A stretch of 64,000 nt of DNA, taken from Escherichia coli O157:H7 (GTDB lineage: Bacteria > Pseudomonadota > Gammaproteobacteria > Enterobacterales > Enterobacteriaceae). The notes beneath the pieces were generated by a model, which had not been told where the DNA came from, did no database searches, and worked only from the letters and a program-made list of their open reading frames with translations. Positions 21,017-34,711 of this stretch are shown in pieces. Made by a program: the position numbers and the translations under genes. The stretch lies in the NCBI RefSeq assembly GCF_013167455.1, contig NZ_CP038328.1; one strand, given 5' to 3'. How positions within the stretch are numbered: position 1 is the stretch's first letter; every line of letters starts with the position of its first letter.

Positions 21017-21966
21017 CCGTGTTCTCCCACGCTTTTTTGCTGGTGTTTGTGAAACCACATTATCGGCACAATTAGCAGCAGCAACATGATGATCGCTACC
21101 GCCGAGGCCACCGGCCAGTCGCGGTTATTGAAAAACTCTTGCCATAGCACGCGCCCGATCATGATGCTGTCCGGGCCACCGAGCAGTTCCGGGATCACAA
21201 ACTCGCCCACAGCCGGGATAAACACCAGCATCGATCCGGCAATAATCCCACCTTTAGTCAGCGGCACGATCACAGTAAAGAACGTTTTCAGCGGTCGTGC
21301 ACCGAGATCCAGCGCTGCTTCCACCAGCGAATAATCAATACGAATCAACGCGGTATAAATCGGCAGCACCATAAACGGCACGTAGGCGTAAACAATGCCA
21401 ATATAAACTGCCAGATTGGTATGAAGAATGGTCAGCGGTTGATCGATAACCCCCAGCCACAGCAGAAAATTATTCAGCACACCGTTGTTTTTTAATATTC
21501 CCATCCAGGCGTAGACACGAATCAGAAACGAGGTCCACGACGGCAGGATCACCAGTAGTAATAAGATATTACGGGTCGAAGGCTTACTGTGCGCCACCGC
21601 CCACGCCAGCGGATAGCCGATCAGTAAACAGCAAAATGTCGAAATCGCCGCCACCTGTAACGACTGGAGATAAGCATCGAAATAGAGCGGATCGCCGGTC
21701 AGTTGCAGGAAATTACCGAAATTAAGGGTGATGGACAGTTGCCCGTCAGCCCACTCCATCAGTTCGGTATAAGGTGGAATAGCGCGCGCCATCTCCGCCA
21801 GGCTTATTTTAAAGACAATCAGAAATGGCAGCAGAAACAGCAAGATCAACCAGATATACGGCAACGCAATGACCAGTTTGCGCCCATGCTTCATTTGCAA
21901 CTGCGACAACCACAGCTTAAATCCGCCCGGCGGTTTCGACTGGGCAGCAGGTTCAAGTGTACTCAT
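21013..21966 (-). CDS. potH: Putrescine ABC transporter permease
   Basis: 317-aa permease with EAA-type loop; pot operon synteny. Confidence 0.9.
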   Translation of the reverse strand: MSTLEPAAQSKPPGGFKLWLSQLQMKHGRKLVIALPYIWLILLFLLPFLIVFKISLAEMARAIPPYTELMEWADGQLSITLNFGNFLQLTGDPLYFDAYLQSLQVAAISTFCCLLIGYPLAWAVAHSKPSTRNILLLLVILPSWTSFLIRVYAWMGILKNNGVLNNFLLWLGVIDQPLTILHTNLAVYIGIVYAYVPFMVLPIYTALIRIDYSLVEAALDLGARPLKTFFTVIVPLTKGGIIAGSMLVFIPAVGEFVIPELLGGPDSIMIGRVLWQEFFNNRDWPVASAVAIIMLLLLIVPIMWFHKHQQKSVGEHG

Positions 21967-21975
21967 CTTTGCTCC

Positions 21976-23109
21976 TTAAACCGTCAGCACCACACAGCTG
22001 TCCACTTCCCAGCACAAACGCACTTCGTCGCCCCAGGTCGGTAACCCTTTACGATGACGATGGGCGTTTTGTAGCTGGGCGCTAATCATCTGCCCACTTT
22101 TCAGACGAACGTGATACACCGAAAGATCGCCGAGATAGGCAATGTGTATCACCTCCCCCACCGCGAAGTTACAACCATTGGCGGGCGGCTCTTCGCAAAG
22201 CATGATTTTTTCCGGACGCAGCGCTACGTGTACCGGCACGTTATCGACCACTGAAGCATCCGCATCGACTTTCAGTGGATGCACCAGCCCCGGCGAATAA
22301 AGCACCAGACCATCTTCCTGACGCTCTTTGAGTACACCTTCAAAGACATTAACCGAGCCAATAAATTCGGCGCTATAGCGGGTAGTCGGATGCTCGTAGA
22401 TCTCTTCCGGTTCGCCAATCTGGACAAATTTCCCACGATTCATAATGGCGATACGCCCCGCCATGGTCATCGCCTCTTCCTGATCGTGGGTGACCATCAC
22501 ACAAGTCACACCGACGCGTTCCAGAATATCCACCACTTCAAGCTGCATCCGGTCACGCAGCTTTTTATCCAGCGCGCCCATCGGCTCGTCGAGCAGTAAT
22601 AGTTTCGGGCGCTTGGCAAGGCTTCGGGCCAGTGCCACACGCTGTCGCTGACCACCGGAAAGCTGATGCGGTTTGCGTTTGGCGAACTCCTGCATATGCA
22701 CAAGGCCGAGCATCTCATTGACCCGGCTGGCAATTTCCGCTTTCGGTAGTTTGTCCTGTTTCAGGCCAAAAGCGATGTTCTGTTCCACGGTCATATGCGG
22801 AAACAGCGCGTAAGACTGAAACATCATATTGATGGGGCGCAGGTAAGGCGGCACCTGTGACAAATCGACGCCATCAAGCATAATCTGCCCGGCTGAAGGT
22901 TGTTCGAAACCTGCCAGCATACGCAGCAGCGTGGACTTGCCACAGCCGGATGCGCCCAGCAGCGCAAAGATTTCACCTTTGTAGATGGTCAGGCTGACAT
23001 CATCAACCGCATGCTGACCATCGTAGGATTTGGTCAGATTGCGGATTTCTAATAGCGGGGTCAGCGCCTTACGGGTTTTCGCCTGGGGGCGAGGGATAGC
23101 GTCATTCAC
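21976..23109 (-). CDS. potG: Putrescine ABC transporter ATP-binding protein
   Basis: Walker A GASGCGKST, LSGGQRQR signature, Walker B LLLDEP; 377 aa. Confidence 0.92.
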   Translation of the reverse strand: MNDAIPRPQAKTRKALTPLLEIRNLTKSYDGQHAVDDVSLTIYKGEIFALLGASGCGKSTLLRMLAGFEQPSAGQIMLDGVDLSQVPPYLRPINMMFQSYALFPHMTVEQNIAFGLKQDKLPKAEIASRVNEMLGLVHMQEFAKRKPHQLSGGQRQRVALARSLAKRPKLLLLDEPMGALDKKLRDRMQLEVVDILERVGVTCVMVTHDQEEAMTMAGRIAIMNRGKFVQIGEPEEIYEHPTTRYSAEFIGSVNVFEGVLKERQEDGLVLYSPGLVHPLKVDADASVVDNVPVHVALRPEKIMLCEEPPANGCNFAVGEVIHIAYLGDLSVYHVRLKSGQMISAQLQNAHRHRKGLPTWGDEVRLCWEVDSCVVLTV

Positions 23110-23203
23110 GGCTGCTCTCCGGCATTAAATGTGTGCAAGCGCACCATGTTGGTGCGAATTGCCGGAGGGAGTGGCGCTCCCGCCCGGCATCTAAGGCTGC
23201 GGA

Positions 23204-24316
23204 TTATTTTCCGCTCTTCACTTTGGTCCACGCGCGGGTGCGCACACGGTCGATTTTCGGAGCCTGTACTTTCAGAGTGAACAACTTCGCGCGGACATCC
23301 GCAGGCGGATAAATACCCGGGTTATCACGGACTTCCGCACTCACCAGCGGCGTGGCTGCTTTATTGGCGTTAGCATAGAACACATGGTCAGAGATATGTG
23401 CCACCACATCAGGACGCAGCAGGTAATTCAGGAACTGATAGGCTTCGTCTTTATTTTTGGCATCCGCAGGCATGGCGAATACATCAAAGAACGCCATCGC
23501 CCCTTCTTTTGGAATCGAGAACGAGACATTCACGCCATTCTTCGCTTCCTTCGCGCGGTTTGACGCCTGCCAGACATCACCTGCCCAGCCGATAGCGACG
23601 CAAATATCGCCGTTTGCCAGGTCGTTAATATATTGAGATGAATGGAAATAACGAATGTTCGGGCGCAGCTTTAACAGCAGATCGGTAGCCGGTCCGGTGT
23701 AATCATCCGCTTTAGTGCTGTTGGGATCTTTGCCGAGATAATTCAGCACGGTAGCAAAAACTTCTTCTGGCGCATCGAGGAAAGATACACCGCAGCTTTT
23801 CAGTTTTTCCAGATTTTCAGGCTTGAGGATCAAGTCCCAGCTATCGACGGGCGCGTTTTCGCCCAGCACCGCTTTGACTTTATCGACGTTATAGCCAATC
23901 CCGGTCGTCGCCCACATATAGGGCATAGCAAATTTATTGTCGGGATCGTGTTTGGCGACCAACTTCAGCAGTTCCGGGTCGAGATTCTTCCACTCCGGCA
24001 ATTTGCTTTTATCCAGCGGCTGGAAAACTCCCGCTGTCAGCTGGCGTTCAAGAAAGCTTGCTGACGGCACCACCAGGTCAAAGCCGGTGCTCCCGGCCAT
24101 TAATTTGCCTTCCAGTACTTCGTTAGAGTCGAAAACATCGTAGACGACTTTAATACCGGTTTCTTTTTCAAAGTTAGCCACCGTGTCGGGGGCGATATAA
24201 TCAGACCAGTTATAAATGTGGAGTGTTTTTTGTTCAGCCGCGAGCGTGCCGACAGAGACGGCCATCAGAGCACCCGCAACCAGACCCGAAAGCCATTTTT
24301 TATTTAAGGCGGTCAT
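23204..24316 (-). CDS. potF: Putrescine-binding periplasmic protein
   Basis: 370 aa from the internal Met (MTALNKKWLSGLVAGALMAVSVGTLA signal peptide); ORF track begins upstream. Confidence 0.9.
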   Translation of the reverse strand: MTALNKKWLSGLVAGALMAVSVGTLAAEQKTLHIYNWSDYIAPDTVANFEKETGIKVVYDVFDSNEVLEGKLMAGSTGFDLVVPSASFLERQLTAGVFQPLDKSKLPEWKNLDPELLKLVAKHDPDNKFAMPYMWATTGIGYNVDKVKAVLGENAPVDSWDLILKPENLEKLKSCGVSFLDAPEEVFATVLNYLGKDPNSTKADDYTGPATDLLLKLRPNIRYFHSSQYINDLANGDICVAIGWAGDVWQASNRAKEAKNGVNVSFSIPKEGAMAFFDVFAMPADAKNKDEAYQFLNYLLRPDVVAHISDHVFYANANKAATPLVSAEVRDNPGIYPPADVRAKLFTLKVQAPKIDRVRTRAWTKVKSGK

Positions 24317-24375
24317 ATCTCTTTCCTTCTGAAAGTTCGTTAACAAACGAACAAAAGTTGTCACACTGAAAGATA

Positions 24376-24391
24376 TGCAATAAACGTGCAT
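24376..24391 (-). promoter_or_regulatory. Possible sigma54-type -24/-12 element upstream of potF
   Basis: Minus strand reads aTGCAC-N5-TTGCA, near the TGGCAC-N5-TTGCA consensus, ~60 nt upstream of the potF start. Confidence 0.3.
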
Positions 24392-24666
24392 ATTTTTTAT
24401 CGGCGCGGTGTAAGAAAAGAGAACTCTCTCCCGGCCAGCACTGCTCGCTATATAAAAGCATCGCAAGAATAACTTTAGCCAGGGTTTGAGACTATAGCTC
24501 GGATTAAAAAACGGTATTTAACAAATTTTTATGCGTATTTGCTCTATGTGATAAAGCCAAATCGACACAAGAGAAGTGAAATAATCTTTAAGAAAAGGTT
24601 AAAAACAGCAGATAATTTTGCAGCGCGCAGCCACTGCACCAGCGACTGCGTGCTCGAAAGGAGTTA

Positions 24667-25143
24667 TCAGTGGAGGAAATAGTTTTCGGTAACGTTGTTT
24701 TGCCCTTCATCGTCAGTCGGTAACAGCAGTTGATGGGCATTAGCTTCAAGAATGACCATCGAAATCTGCTCTTCGCTCTGACGCACGAACCATGCAAACT
24801 GCTCATAGGTTACGCCCTGCATAACGGATAAAGACTGGCAAACCACCAGCTTTGGCAGATTATCATCCTGCATATCAAGAAATGCTTTCACGGTCAGCGA
24901 ACTGGCATTGATGGCAGATAAATCCGCCGCCAGCGGCAATACGGCTGAAGGTCGGACTTCCGCCATGGCAGAAAACAGGATCGTGTTATCGATCAGATCG
25001 ATTTTGGCATCAAAGACACCGTCGAAATTCTGCATATGGGGCAGATGCAGAGCCTGACAGTTATCACATTCAAAAAAACTCATCCCCAGGTCATCGAGCC
25101 ATTGACGCAGCGTATCCAGACCAGGAACGACCAGCGATGTCAT
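24667..25143 (-). CDS. ybjN: YbjN (putative sensory transduction regulator family)
   Basis: 158 aa from the internal Met (MTSLVVPGLD...); conserved between potF and rimK. Confidence 0.8.
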   Translation of the reverse strand: MTSLVVPGLDTLRQWLDDLGMSFFECDNCQALHLPHMQNFDGVFDAKIDLIDNTILFSAMAEVRPSAVLPLAADLSAINASSLTVKAFLDMQDDNLPKLVVCQSLSVMQGVTYEQFAWFVRQSEEQISMVILEANAHQLLLPTDDEGQNNVTENYFLH

Positions 25144-33197: not shown

Positions 33198-34427
33198 CCC
33201 TTCGTGAGAATTTCCCATCTGTTTATCTTTTAAAAAGATAACCATCAGCGACAGCCACAAAATTCCGTTGACAAGGTTGAAGAGATTAAACAGTCCGTTG
33301 CCCCCGTTCAGCCAGGCATGTTTGCTGATTTCAATACCGACGGTAAAGATCAGCATTTGCAGCATTCCCATCGCCGCAGAAACCGTACCTTTACTCATAT
33401 CGCTGGCAAACAGGGTTAATCGCACCAGTCCCGCATTCGCCAGACCAATACCGAAAGCATAAATACTTAACCCGGCGGTCATCCATAAATACGCGTGCGA
33501 TGAGATAACCGTTGCCGCAGCAGCGACCAACAGACCAATCATAATCGGCCAGCCGCCCATAATAATCAGCGAACGTACGGTGCGGCGCGAGGTCAGACGC
33601 GCTAACAGCAAGTTACCCGCAATTAACGCCCCGAAAATAGGCACTTGCAGCAAACCATATTCATAGCTGCTCAACTGCTCGCCGGTAATGATGATAATCG
33701 GCGACTGAGCGATCCACGCCAGCAACGGCAGGCTAACGAATCCCAGCGCCAGCGCCCCCGCCACAAAGCGACCGTTCTTCAGCACCAGCTTATAGTCACG
33801 ACCGAGTTCTTTCAGCGACAGTTTCTCGCCTATACGCGTGGCGGTTTCAGGCATGGCTCGTTGCAGACCGAAAAAGGAGATCGCTGCCAATGCGGCAAAC
33901 AAGACAAACATCCCTTCCCAGGGCAGCACATGGATCCACGCCGCGCCCACCAGTGGACCAAGTAGCGGAGCAATCAGCGCCACGTTCGCCATCAGCGCGG
34001 TGATCTTGATACAAACCGCCTCTTCGAAGGATTCCTGAATTGCGGCGTATCCCACAGCGCCAATGAAACAGAGGCTTATGCCCTGCAAGAAGCGCAACAG
34101 GGTGAATTGTTCAATGTTTTGCGCCAGTAATATTGCCAGACAGGTGACAATAAACCACACCACACCCGCCAGCATCACCGGACGGCGACCAATACGATCC
34201 GACAACGGCCCCAGGAGCCATTGTAAAAACATCCCGCCCGCCAGATACGCGGTCATCGAAGTAGGAACCCAATCAATGCCCGCCTGATATTGTTCCACCA
34301 CGGCCAACATACCGGGTTGAATCATATCGTTGCCGATATAGGTTGAAAATTCGTAAAGCACCAGACAGAGAGGGAAAAGTAACGCCTGACGTCCAAGCCT
34401 GGCACCGGAAGCTAATTTATTTTGCAT
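33195..34427 (-). CDS. mdfA: Multidrug efflux MFS transporter MdfA (Cmr)
   Basis: 410-aa MFS protein, [41 protein letters not shown]-terminus recalled as MdfA. Confidence 0.92.
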
Positions 34428-34711
34428 GCAATTTCTTCGCCAATAATAATCGCGCAGAGTTTAATAAAAGCGCAGCTAACGAGAAAGCGAATTTTGTAGC
34501 TGAAACCACGGTTAAGCACATTCTTACATTATTGCGAGTATAGCTACGCTTTCTTTAAGTTTTATTTAACCTATGCCCGTTACAATCACCCACCGTAAAC
34601 AGGCCGCTTGAGGGAAATAAGACGATGCCGCTTTACCCAGTTTAACCTGCACTTTATTCTCAACGACTTGCCTGTATTGGCTCCCTTTTAATCACTTTGC
34701 GTCGGGAAGTT

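Follow-up and report, generated by a model that had tools for sequence, protein, structure and literature searches.

We analyzed a window of 64,000 nucleotides of Escherichia coli O157:H7 DNA, in which the genes rimK, ybjN, potF and potG lie in this order on the minus strand, according to the annotation of matching genomes. The potF coding sequence (23204..24316, minus strand), recognized as an open reading frame and through RefSeq and K-12 annotation, specifies a putrescine-binding periplasmic protein and is the first gene of the potFGHI operon. A 2.4-kb query around the site studied here was 100% identical to O157:H7-type chromosomes and was present in 5419 of 5426 complete genomes. The first-pass annotation had described a sigma-54-like element upstream of potF, reading aTGCAC-N5-TTGCA on the gene strand, about 60 nt from the start codon and with an imperfect -24 GG dinucleotide, and this description was accurate throughout. 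On the minus strand, the letters are exactly a (24391), TGCAC (24390-24386), GTTTA (24385-24381) and TTGCA (24380-24376), and the end of the motif is separated from the ATG of potF (24316..24314) by 59 nt. Compared with the consensus TGGCAC, A replaces T and T replaces the first G.

The complete sigma-54 binding sequence is the 17-mer TATGCACGTTTATTGCA (24376..24392, minus strand), which was assigned as the potFGHI sigma-54 promoter, Bonocora site OS08, on the basis of its sequence, its identity to K-12, a ChIP-seq entry and its conservation. First, the -12 box TTGCA (24376..24380, minus strand) is consensus and is followed by an invariant T; its GC lies in a TTGCW context, with G in 133 and C in 124 of 134 verified sites. 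Second, the -24 box ATGCAC (24386..24391, minus strand) is non-consensus. The second G of the GG and the following CA(C/T) are present as GCAC at 24389-24386 (at position 4 of the motif, 133 of 134 verified sites have G), whereas the first G of the GG is replaced by T at 24390, where 130 of the 134 other ChIP sites have G (position 3). The four other ChIP-verified sites without the first G are ygfT, which has T, and dhaM, yqeC and ybhA, which have A. Thus, this G is near-universal and not obligatory, and it is typical of sigma-54 promoters without defining them. Finally, the spacing of the two dinucleotides is canonical, with TG (24390-24389) and GC (24378-24377) separated by 10 nt. By the rule of Bonocora, which counts 19 bp downstream from the motif centre to the start, and the distance of 49 nt tabulated there, transcription is predicted to begin at 24365 (minus strand) and to produce a 5' UTR of 49 nt.

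By sequence alone, the potF sigma-54 motif is not above chance. The exact pattern TGCAC-N5-TTGCA occurred once in the window against 0.36 expected, and at least one occurrence was found in 31 of 100 shuffles. When up to two mismatches to TGGCAC-N5-TTGCA were allowed, the window contained 22 matches against 26.6 expected. We also built a PSSM, using the 134 motifs that the E. coli sigma-54 ChIP-seq study lists besides the one at potF (PMC4591121, Tables 1 and 2). It gave TATGCACGTTTATTGCA a score of 8.6, and only 2 of the 134 training sites scored lower; the same score ranked 47th in the window, with 46 positions higher, and 42.5 +/- 4.3 matches as good would be expected in a random sequence of 64 kb. 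The opposite strand of the 17-mer scored 0.28. The reality of the site accordingly follows from its position, the published binding data and its conservation, and not from the strength of the motif.

An identical 17-mer is present in E. coli MG1655, where its centre lies at NC_000913.3 position 893716, corresponding to U00096.2 position 892939, and this is the motif centre of OS08. In the sigma-54 ChIP-seq study of Bonocora 2015 (PMC4591121, Table 1), OS08 is assigned to potF, with a peak centre at 892944 and a fold-above-threshold (FAT) of 2; the peak centre is therefore 5 bp off the motif centre. The entry gives a distance of 49 nt between the predicted start and the ATG, a PSSM score of 6.8 and the mark 'P', which denotes a promoter already predicted in EcoCyc (PMC4591121). 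The occupancy of OS08 is among the lowest reported (PMC4591121). Motif-bearing peaks of that data set were rpoN-dependent wherever this was tested; 13 sites were validated by qPCR with an rpoN deletion, apparently not including OS08 (PMC4591121). Thus, the potF sigma-54 promoter is a weak one that was already known, from EcoCyc and from the exact mapping of its motif by ChIP-seq in 2015, and it is no discovery of this study. In a genomic SELEX experiment, the RpoN-holoenzyme peak in the ybjN-potF spacer was the highest in the genome (Shimada 2021, PMC8743547). This peak is centred some 300 bp upstream of the motif; in the paper, it was attributed to a different sequence, located inside ybjN (PMC8743547), an assignment that we find unconvincing. 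A second sigma-54-like 17-mer of the window, CTGGTGCAGTGGCTGCG (24626-24642, PSSM 6.9), lies nearer to the peak; it is part of the ybjN terminator hairpin and was rejected, because the hairpin sequence turns into a non-motif in other genera.

To place the element in a wider context, we collected 80 PotF loci, one genome per species of Enterobacterales. The pattern ATGCAY-N5-YTGCA was found in 52 of the 80 loci, with 18 different N5 spacers, and its distance to the ATG was mostly 58-60 nt, with a maximum of 108 nt. In nearly all Enterobacteriaceae examined, the best sigma-54 PSSM match within 450 nt upstream of potF was the orthologous site, whose end lies 58-60 nt from the ATG; the genera concerned include Escherichia, Citrobacter, Enterobacter, Klebsiella, Raoultella, Kosakonia and Leclercia, as well as Trabulsiella, Phytobacter, Siccibacter, Pluralibacter, Buttiauxella and Cedecea. 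In an unfiltered, motif-blind alignment of 35 genera, no block other than ATGCA..TGCAT was invariant in the stretch from an upstream terminator-like hairpin to the Shine-Dalgarno sequence. The -12 box and the -24/-12 spacing were unchanged in all 52 element-bearing loci, and the T after TTGCA was invariant although the search pattern did not demand it. Constraint beyond the invariant block was asymmetric and followed TGGCAYG-N4-TTGCW: position 6 was a pyrimidine, and among 49 distinct sequences G was present at position 7 in 45, T at position 10 in 46 and T at position 12 in 48, in each case beyond what the search pattern required. The non-consensus A and T at positions 2-3 of the 17-mer, which are rare among the 134 verified sites (A in 5, T in 1), were constant in every element-bearing locus, and the T was invariant in the 35-sequence alignment as well. 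Within the species, a 40-mer around the site was present in 5346 of 5426 E. coli genomes, and the 17-mer was identical in four other aligned E. coli sequences (three sampled variant genomes and locus L002), in which all differences fell outside it. The potF upstream regions of Yersinia, Serratia, Rahnella, Pectobacterium, Dickeya, Brenneria and Sodalis did not contain the element. It was degenerate in Salmonella arizonae and diarizonae, in which TTGCA has become AGGCA, and in Yokenella, in which 2 nt of the spacer are deleted and an NtrC box described below has been lost as well. The degenerate state in Salmonella agrees with the fact that potF is not mentioned in the main text of a sigma-54 ChIP-chip study of Salmonella LT2.

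Thus, the evolutionary constraint on the element follows the pattern of a -24/-12 promoter, and the fixed non-consensus bases possibly reflect selection for a specifically weak -24 box. This conservation signature, together with the identity of the 17-mer to ChIP-seq site OS08, supports the original reading of the element as a sigma-54 promoter. We consider it highly probable that the putrescine ABC-transporter operon potFGHI has its sigma-54 (RpoN) promoter in this element.

The same conservation data bear on the alternative that survives best, namely that the element is, or doubles as, a palindromic operator ATGCA-N7-TGCAT of a dimeric factor that overlaps the sigma-54 site, with an Rrf2/NsrR-like protein as one candidate. 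The ten positions that never vary make up a perfect dyad. Sigma-54 disfavours the A and T at positions 2-3, which are nevertheless constant wherever the element is present, and the T following TTGCA, which completes the right arm, is invariant. NsrR sites have the form AAGATGCATTT-N-AAATGCATCTT, an 11-1-11 inverted repeat. The geometry of the potF element equals this repeat, and by our own count it matches the ytfE operator at 15 of 22 positions. In addition, the sigma-54 site of ygfT is identical to it at 16 of 17 positions, spacer included. On the other hand, the extra conserved positions Y6, G7, T10 and T12 are asymmetric and fit sigma-54 rather than a dyad. The central heptamer differs from the AT-rich TTTnAAA found in NsrR sites, and potF is absent from the part of the CFT073 NsrR ChIP-seq table that was examined and from the 19 promoters that this data set shares with an earlier K-12 ChIP-chip study (PMC5320621). 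Therefore, with the right geometry, only 15 of 22 matches to ytfE and no AT-rich centre, the element was not accepted as an NsrR operator. Two further candidates were also rejected. An ARG box (TGAAT-W4-ATTCA with up to three mismatches) was found nowhere over 24370-24400, so that this reading would need more than three mismatches. Reading the element itself as an NtrC box would need the wrong spacing, as seen by inspection, and the box scan gave no match. The low score of the opposite strand (0.28) implies that the dyad does not reflect two-way binding of sigma-54, and it provides no argument for a second protein either. An operator function, alone or in addition to that of a promoter, thus appears rather unlikely, and the sigma-54 promoter remains our preferred interpretation of the element.

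With respect to regulation, the first-pass annotation had suggested that such a promoter would fit nitrogen-regulated putrescine uptake, and published expression data agree with this. On nitrogen depletion, the mRNA of potG rose 6.0-fold and that of potI 3.2-fold, and the increase was attributed to RpoN and NtrC jointly (Shimada 2021, PMC8743547). The potFGHI operon is among 15 described NtrC-regulated operons, all 15 of which have a sigma-54 peak (PMC4591121). In addition, potF was up in both the RNA-seq and the proteome of a nitrogen-limited, ammonium-cross-feeding coculture. It is the promoter at 24376-24392, rather than another one, that would carry this nitrogen response. At the same time, the potFGH genes of O157:H7 are strongly RpoS-dependent (52-, 18- and 4-fold, respectively), and the region has annotated sites for Lrp, ArgR and ArcA; there must therefore be at least one other promoter or input for potF. 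A sigma-70 promoter scan of the gene strand upstream of potF gave nothing convincing. The -10 candidate CTATAGT (24491-24497) was considered doubtful, as it reads TATAGC in most genera when compared by eye.

Several structures flank the element. A terminator-like hairpin with a T-run (GGCCGGGAGAGAGTTCTCTTTTCTT; 24412..24436, minus strand) lies 20-45 nt upstream of the -24 box. A simple terminator scan did not flag it; its structure is kept while its sequence varies by genus, for example GGGAGAGG..CCTCTCTCC-TTTTCTT in Klebsiella. This hairpin may shield the sigma-54 promoter against transcription that arrives from further upstream. There, beyond the hairpin, about 170 nt form a highly conserved block. 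On the other side of the element, a small conserved stem-loop, GUUCGUU-UGUU-AACGAAC (24334..24351, minus strand), is located in the 5' UTR just upstream of the Shine-Dalgarno sequence. In the alignment, 86.7% of its cells were paired, compared with 23-41% when the partner was slid, and in three pairs both partners had changed (from UA to CG, in 8-10 sequences), G-U intermediates being frequent; the folding energy was not unusual (z = 0.33). An Rfam scan of 23000-24800 gave no family, and an IHF consensus scan gave one match with 1 mismatch in the spacer, which is uninformative.

Some of these observations could be accommodated by a different role, in which sigma-54 polymerase parked at the element as a closed complex, alone or together with NtrC, acts as a roadblock or competitor that modulates upstream sigma-70/sigma-S transcription and is not mainly a productive promoter complex. 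Bonocora 2015 stress that binding sites are not necessarily promoters (PMC4591121), and Shimada 2021 (PMC8743547) propose that promoter-bound RpoN holoenzyme can repress RpoD-dependent transcription. The strong RpoS dependence of potFGH and the conserved block of about 170 nt upstream would fit such a role, and so would the literature, in which our search for 5'-end mapping of potF mRNA, and thus for a mapped sigma-54 start, found none. However, the induction of potG and potI was attributed to RpoN and NtrC and represents activation, not repression. The conserved terminator-like hairpin between the block and the element would already stop most read-through, and in most genera the element keeps a constant distance of 58-60 nt from the ATG, which would be expected if it were a promoter that gives rise to a leader of set length. 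A roadblock thus seems improbable, more so than the operator. Finally, the view that the element is a chance resemblance without function, with potF expressed only from sigma-70/sigma-S promoters, could draw on the motif statistics (22 matches against 26.6; rank 47 with 42.5 expected) and the missing first G, but it is effectively refuted and has next to no probability left, given a ChIP-seq peak centred on the motif, boxes kept family-wide while the spacer varies freely, and a 17-mer unchanged in all E. coli variants sampled.

If the element is the sigma-54 promoter of potFGHI, an enhancer for NtrC should be expected, and the first-pass annotation had proposed to look for one upstream. This expectation was not borne out. 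No NtrC box with up to three mismatches was found between ybjN and potF in the window, and within 600 nt upstream of potF the best NtrC match in all 80 loci was 8-10 of 14 positions, which is background, with none reaching 11 of 14. The only strong NtrC box lies downstream of potF. It is the near-perfect box CGCACCAACATGGTGCG (23140..23156, no strand assigned), a candidate enhancer in the 94-nt potF-potG spacer, with an exact GCACCA-N3-TGGTGC core and 12 of 14 matches to TGCACCA-N3-TGGTGCA, and it lies about 1.23 kb downstream of the promoter, with the GTG of potG some 30 nt further on. Its arms are identical in K-12, whereas the central triplet and a neighbouring hairpin differ. Adjacent to it is a weaker putative NtrC-like site or half-site, TGCACACATTTAATGCC (23121..23137, minus strand), which matches the consensus at 9 of 14 positions by eye and whose left half TTGCACC is kept across genera. 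The published NtrC genomic SELEX data include a peak at 894130 (95%) in the potF-potG spacer and a gel shift of a 'potG' probe (PMC8743547), and the CGCACCAACATGGTGCG box coincides with both the peak and the gel-shifted region.

The comparative set also suggested a relationship between the two sites. An NtrC box (10-14 of 14) was present in 48 of the 52 loci with the promoter element and in none of the 28 loci without it (Fisher p = 1e-17, with phylogeny ignored). Counted as events, these data correspond to one shared origin and 2-3 joint losses (Salmonella, Yokenella and possibly strain LSJC7), together with 3-4 losses of the NtrC box alone and none of the promoter element alone. The co-occurrence of promoter element and NtrC box is thus suggestive only. 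Two ChIP-seq studies of NtrC count against an enhancer at this position: Brown 2014 reported no potF or potG peak among 21 regions (Table 1 passes from glnHPQ to rut) and has no supplement entry for potF, and Aquino 2017 (Table S1) gives '-' for potFGHI. The label 'potG promoter' used by Shimada would imply a local sigma-54 promoter next to the box; for E. coli this was rejected, as the best gene-strand PSSM score in 22501-23800 was 3.8. A good sigma-54 motif overlapping the NtrC box was found only in a few Citrobacter species, in which 3-4 extra bases restore the spacing.

In engineered constructs, NtrC is able to act over kilobase distances and also from the downstream side. We raise, as a plausible but tentative idea that is more likely to fail than to hold, that the conserved NtrC box 1.2 kb downstream may serve as a natural downstream enhancer of the potF promoter. 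In a fuller version, which we regard as slightly more doubtful still, a downstream NtrC enhancer, made up of the box and its adjacent half-site, would loop to a crippled -24 box, whose A and T have stayed fixed, perhaps through a palindromic operator for a second protein, and promoter and NtrC box would have been lost jointly in Salmonella and Yokenella.

Based on these considerations, the sigma-54 promoter of potFGHI could work as follows. Sigma-54 polymerase would bind TTGCA and a deliberately poor -24 box, ATGCAC, and would form a closed complex of low occupancy. Under nitrogen limitation, phosphorylated NtrC would oligomerize on its DNA sites and loop to the bound polymerase, and ATP hydrolysis by NtrC would then open the promoter. 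Transcription would start near 24365, the predicted position, and yield a potFGHI mRNA with a 49-nt leader. The terminator-like hairpin at 24436-24412 would probably insulate the promoter from transcription coming from ybjN or from the upstream block.

The main value of the locus is that of a calibration case. A motif indistinguishable from background proved to be real, and it was recognizable only from its position before a nitrogen-scavenging operon. It follows that weak sigma-54 sites can neither be called nor be dismissed from their letters alone. Three further points are of modest value: a non-consensus -24 box has stayed fixed throughout a bacterial family; the promoter has its only NtrC box on the downstream side, within the operon, and the box tends to come and go with it; and the label 'potG promoter' is unsupported by any sigma-54 motif at that place in E. 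coli. What goes beyond published work is limited to the downstream NtrC box as an enhancer candidate and the frozen non-consensus -24 box, and the downstream-enhancer idea is a modest new proposal. If true, the downstream box would be a natural example of long-range, position-independent enhancer action by NtrC, which to our knowledge has been shown mainly with engineered constructs.

Comparison with known systems places the element as follows. The potF sigma-54 promoter of MG1655 (OS08) is the same object, with an identical 17-mer at the same position relative to potF. The 350-nt ybjN-potF spacer contains 2 substitutions relative to MG1655 and the flanks otherwise match; the central triplet of the NtrC box is ACA in the window and TTA in K-12, and nothing of substance differs. 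A similar verified site is the sigma-54 site of ygfT (OS32, TATGCCCGTTTATTGCA), whose 16 identical positions include the non-consensus TAT start and the GTTTA spacer, and which resembles the potF site also in its low FAT (3), its low PSSM score and the same T following the motif. It differs in that it belongs to another locus and pathway (a putative oxidoreductase) and in that its left dyad arm reads ATGCC, not ATGCA.

With the glnAp2, glnHp2, nac and glnK promoters, the potF promoter shares the -24/-12 elements with exact spacing and induction by nitrogen limitation. Its predicted leader of 49 nt falls in the range of theirs (42-73 nt), and both the potF operon and these promoters have an NtrC box with the TGCACCA-N3-TGGTGCA core. 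In contrast, the -24 box of potF has TG and not the GG of canonical NtrC-activated promoters, its FAT is 2 compared with 6-24 for glnH, glnK, nac and glnA, and NtrC ChIP-seq was negative at potF and strongly positive at glnAp2, glnHp2, nac and glnK. Finally, in canonical NtrC-activated promoters the NtrC sites are located at about 100-150 bp upstream, whereas the only strong NtrC box of potF lies about 1.2 kb downstream.

Upstream of the potF sigma-54 promoter, a conserved block of approximately 170 nt (24445-24615, minus strand) was located between this promoter and the ybjN terminator, whose conservation across genera was far above that of the surroundings of the sigma-54 element. Its sequence reads AACCTTT..TTAAAGAATTATTCAC...GCTTTATCACATAGAC..TGCATAAAAAATTGATAAAAGGCGTTTTTTAATCTGGGCTATAGCC....CTGGCTAAAGTTATTCTTGCGA, and contains the self-complementary GGCTATAGCC as well as CTATAGCC/GGCTAMAG, which may form a stem. 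A scan of positions 23000-24800 against Rfam returned no match for the block, and our literature search found no paper on it. The block could be the site of a sigma-70 or sigma-S promoter and of the Lrp, ArgR and ArcA sites that belong to it. Alternatively, it could represent a small RNA or leader ending at a terminator-like hairpin followed by a T-run (GGCCGGGAGAGAGTTCTCTTTTCTT, 24412-24436, minus strand); this hairpin lies 20-45 nt from the -24 box, on its upstream side. The sequence of this hairpin differed between genera, with its structure maintained (for example, GGGAGAGG-TC-CTCTCTCC-TTTTCTT), and it was often surrounded by an outer CTGC/GCAG stem. The hairpin was not among the hits of a simple terminator scan.

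Two additional hairpins were observed around potF. First, a small stem-loop (GUUCGUU-UGUU-AACGAAC; 24334-24351, minus strand) was present in the potF 5' UTR, directly upstream of the Shine-Dalgarno sequence. Its stem showed compensatory changes between genera (UA to CG and GC to AU) along with many G-U intermediates, and its loop, UUGUUAA, was conserved. In more distant genera, this position was occupied by another hairpin, which was GC-rich and had U's after it. Second, a hairpin that was GC-rich and lacked a T-run (GCCGGGCGGGAGCGCCACTCCCTCCGGC, 23161-23195, minus strand) directly followed the potF stop codon, between potF and the NtrC box. Nine of its positions differed from E. coli K-12, with pairing apparently retained, and other genera carried comparable hairpins. 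The hairpin next to potF is probably a REP-like or intercistronic stabiliser element.

Comparison of potF loci from other Enterobacterales revealed sigma-54 motifs at further positions. In the potF-potG spacer of some Citrobacter (loci L006 and L010), three to four extra bases after the NtrC box generated a good sigma-54 motif, at approximately +88 to +120 counted from the potF stop codon and overlapping the right arm of the box (GTGGTGCGTTATTTGCA and ATGGTGCGAATTTTGCA, with matrix scores of 14.9 and 17.5, respectively), whereas E. coli and most other genera lacked the correct sigma-54 spacing at this box. In Kluyvera (L023) and Pseudocitrobacter (L028), the conserved weak motif was preceded by an additional, fully canonical one, at distances of 265 and 141 nt from potF (TTGGCGAGATTCTTGCA, 15.9; TTGGCGAGGTTTTTGCA, 16.7), respectively. 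The potF-potG NtrC box was missing in Pseudocitrobacter.

In the in vitro gSELEX screen with RpoN holoenzyme, the strongest peak of the genome lies at approximately U00096.2 892632 (PMC8743547); its centre is about 300 bp away from the in vivo ChIP-seq motif, on the upstream side. The motif proposed for this peak by the authors of that screen, TTTGCATGGTTCGTGGC, is inside ybjN (PMC8743547), and its version in the window (24782-24798, minus strand) had a PSSM score of 6.1. A GG-containing 17-mer, CTGGTGCAGTGGCTGCG, within the ybjN terminator hairpin (24626-24642, minus strand), scored 6.9. Neither accounts for the top-ranked peak.

The highest matrix score of the whole window (15.3) belonged to TTGGCGAAGAAATTGCA (34427-34443, minus strand), which far surpasses the potF element as a sigma-54 site. 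Its position is exactly that of Bonocora site OS07 (U00096.2 882888; FAT 10; nearest gene rcdA), and it also matches the gSELEX RpoN peak at ybjG/cmr. In addition, TGGCAAGAGTTTTTCA (21129-21144, minus strand), which is absent from the high-stringency E. coli ChIP-seq sites, lies inside potH. In Salmonella LT2, a sigma-54 ChIP-chip signal was assigned to the intragenic potH site TGGCAGGAGTTTTTCAAT, of which TGGCAAGAGTTTTTCA appears to be the counterpart, as judged from its similar sequence and its position within potH. Finally, the potF site was identical at 16 of 17 positions, among them the non-consensus TAT start and those of the spacer, to the sigma-54 site upstream of E. coli K-12 ygfT (TATGCCCGTTTATTGCA(T); positions 279-295, minus strand, of the ygfT upstream region, L082). 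The spacer common to both sites varies freely among potF orthologues. This likeness between the ygfT and potF sites may reflect a shared origin, a shared second factor or coincidence.
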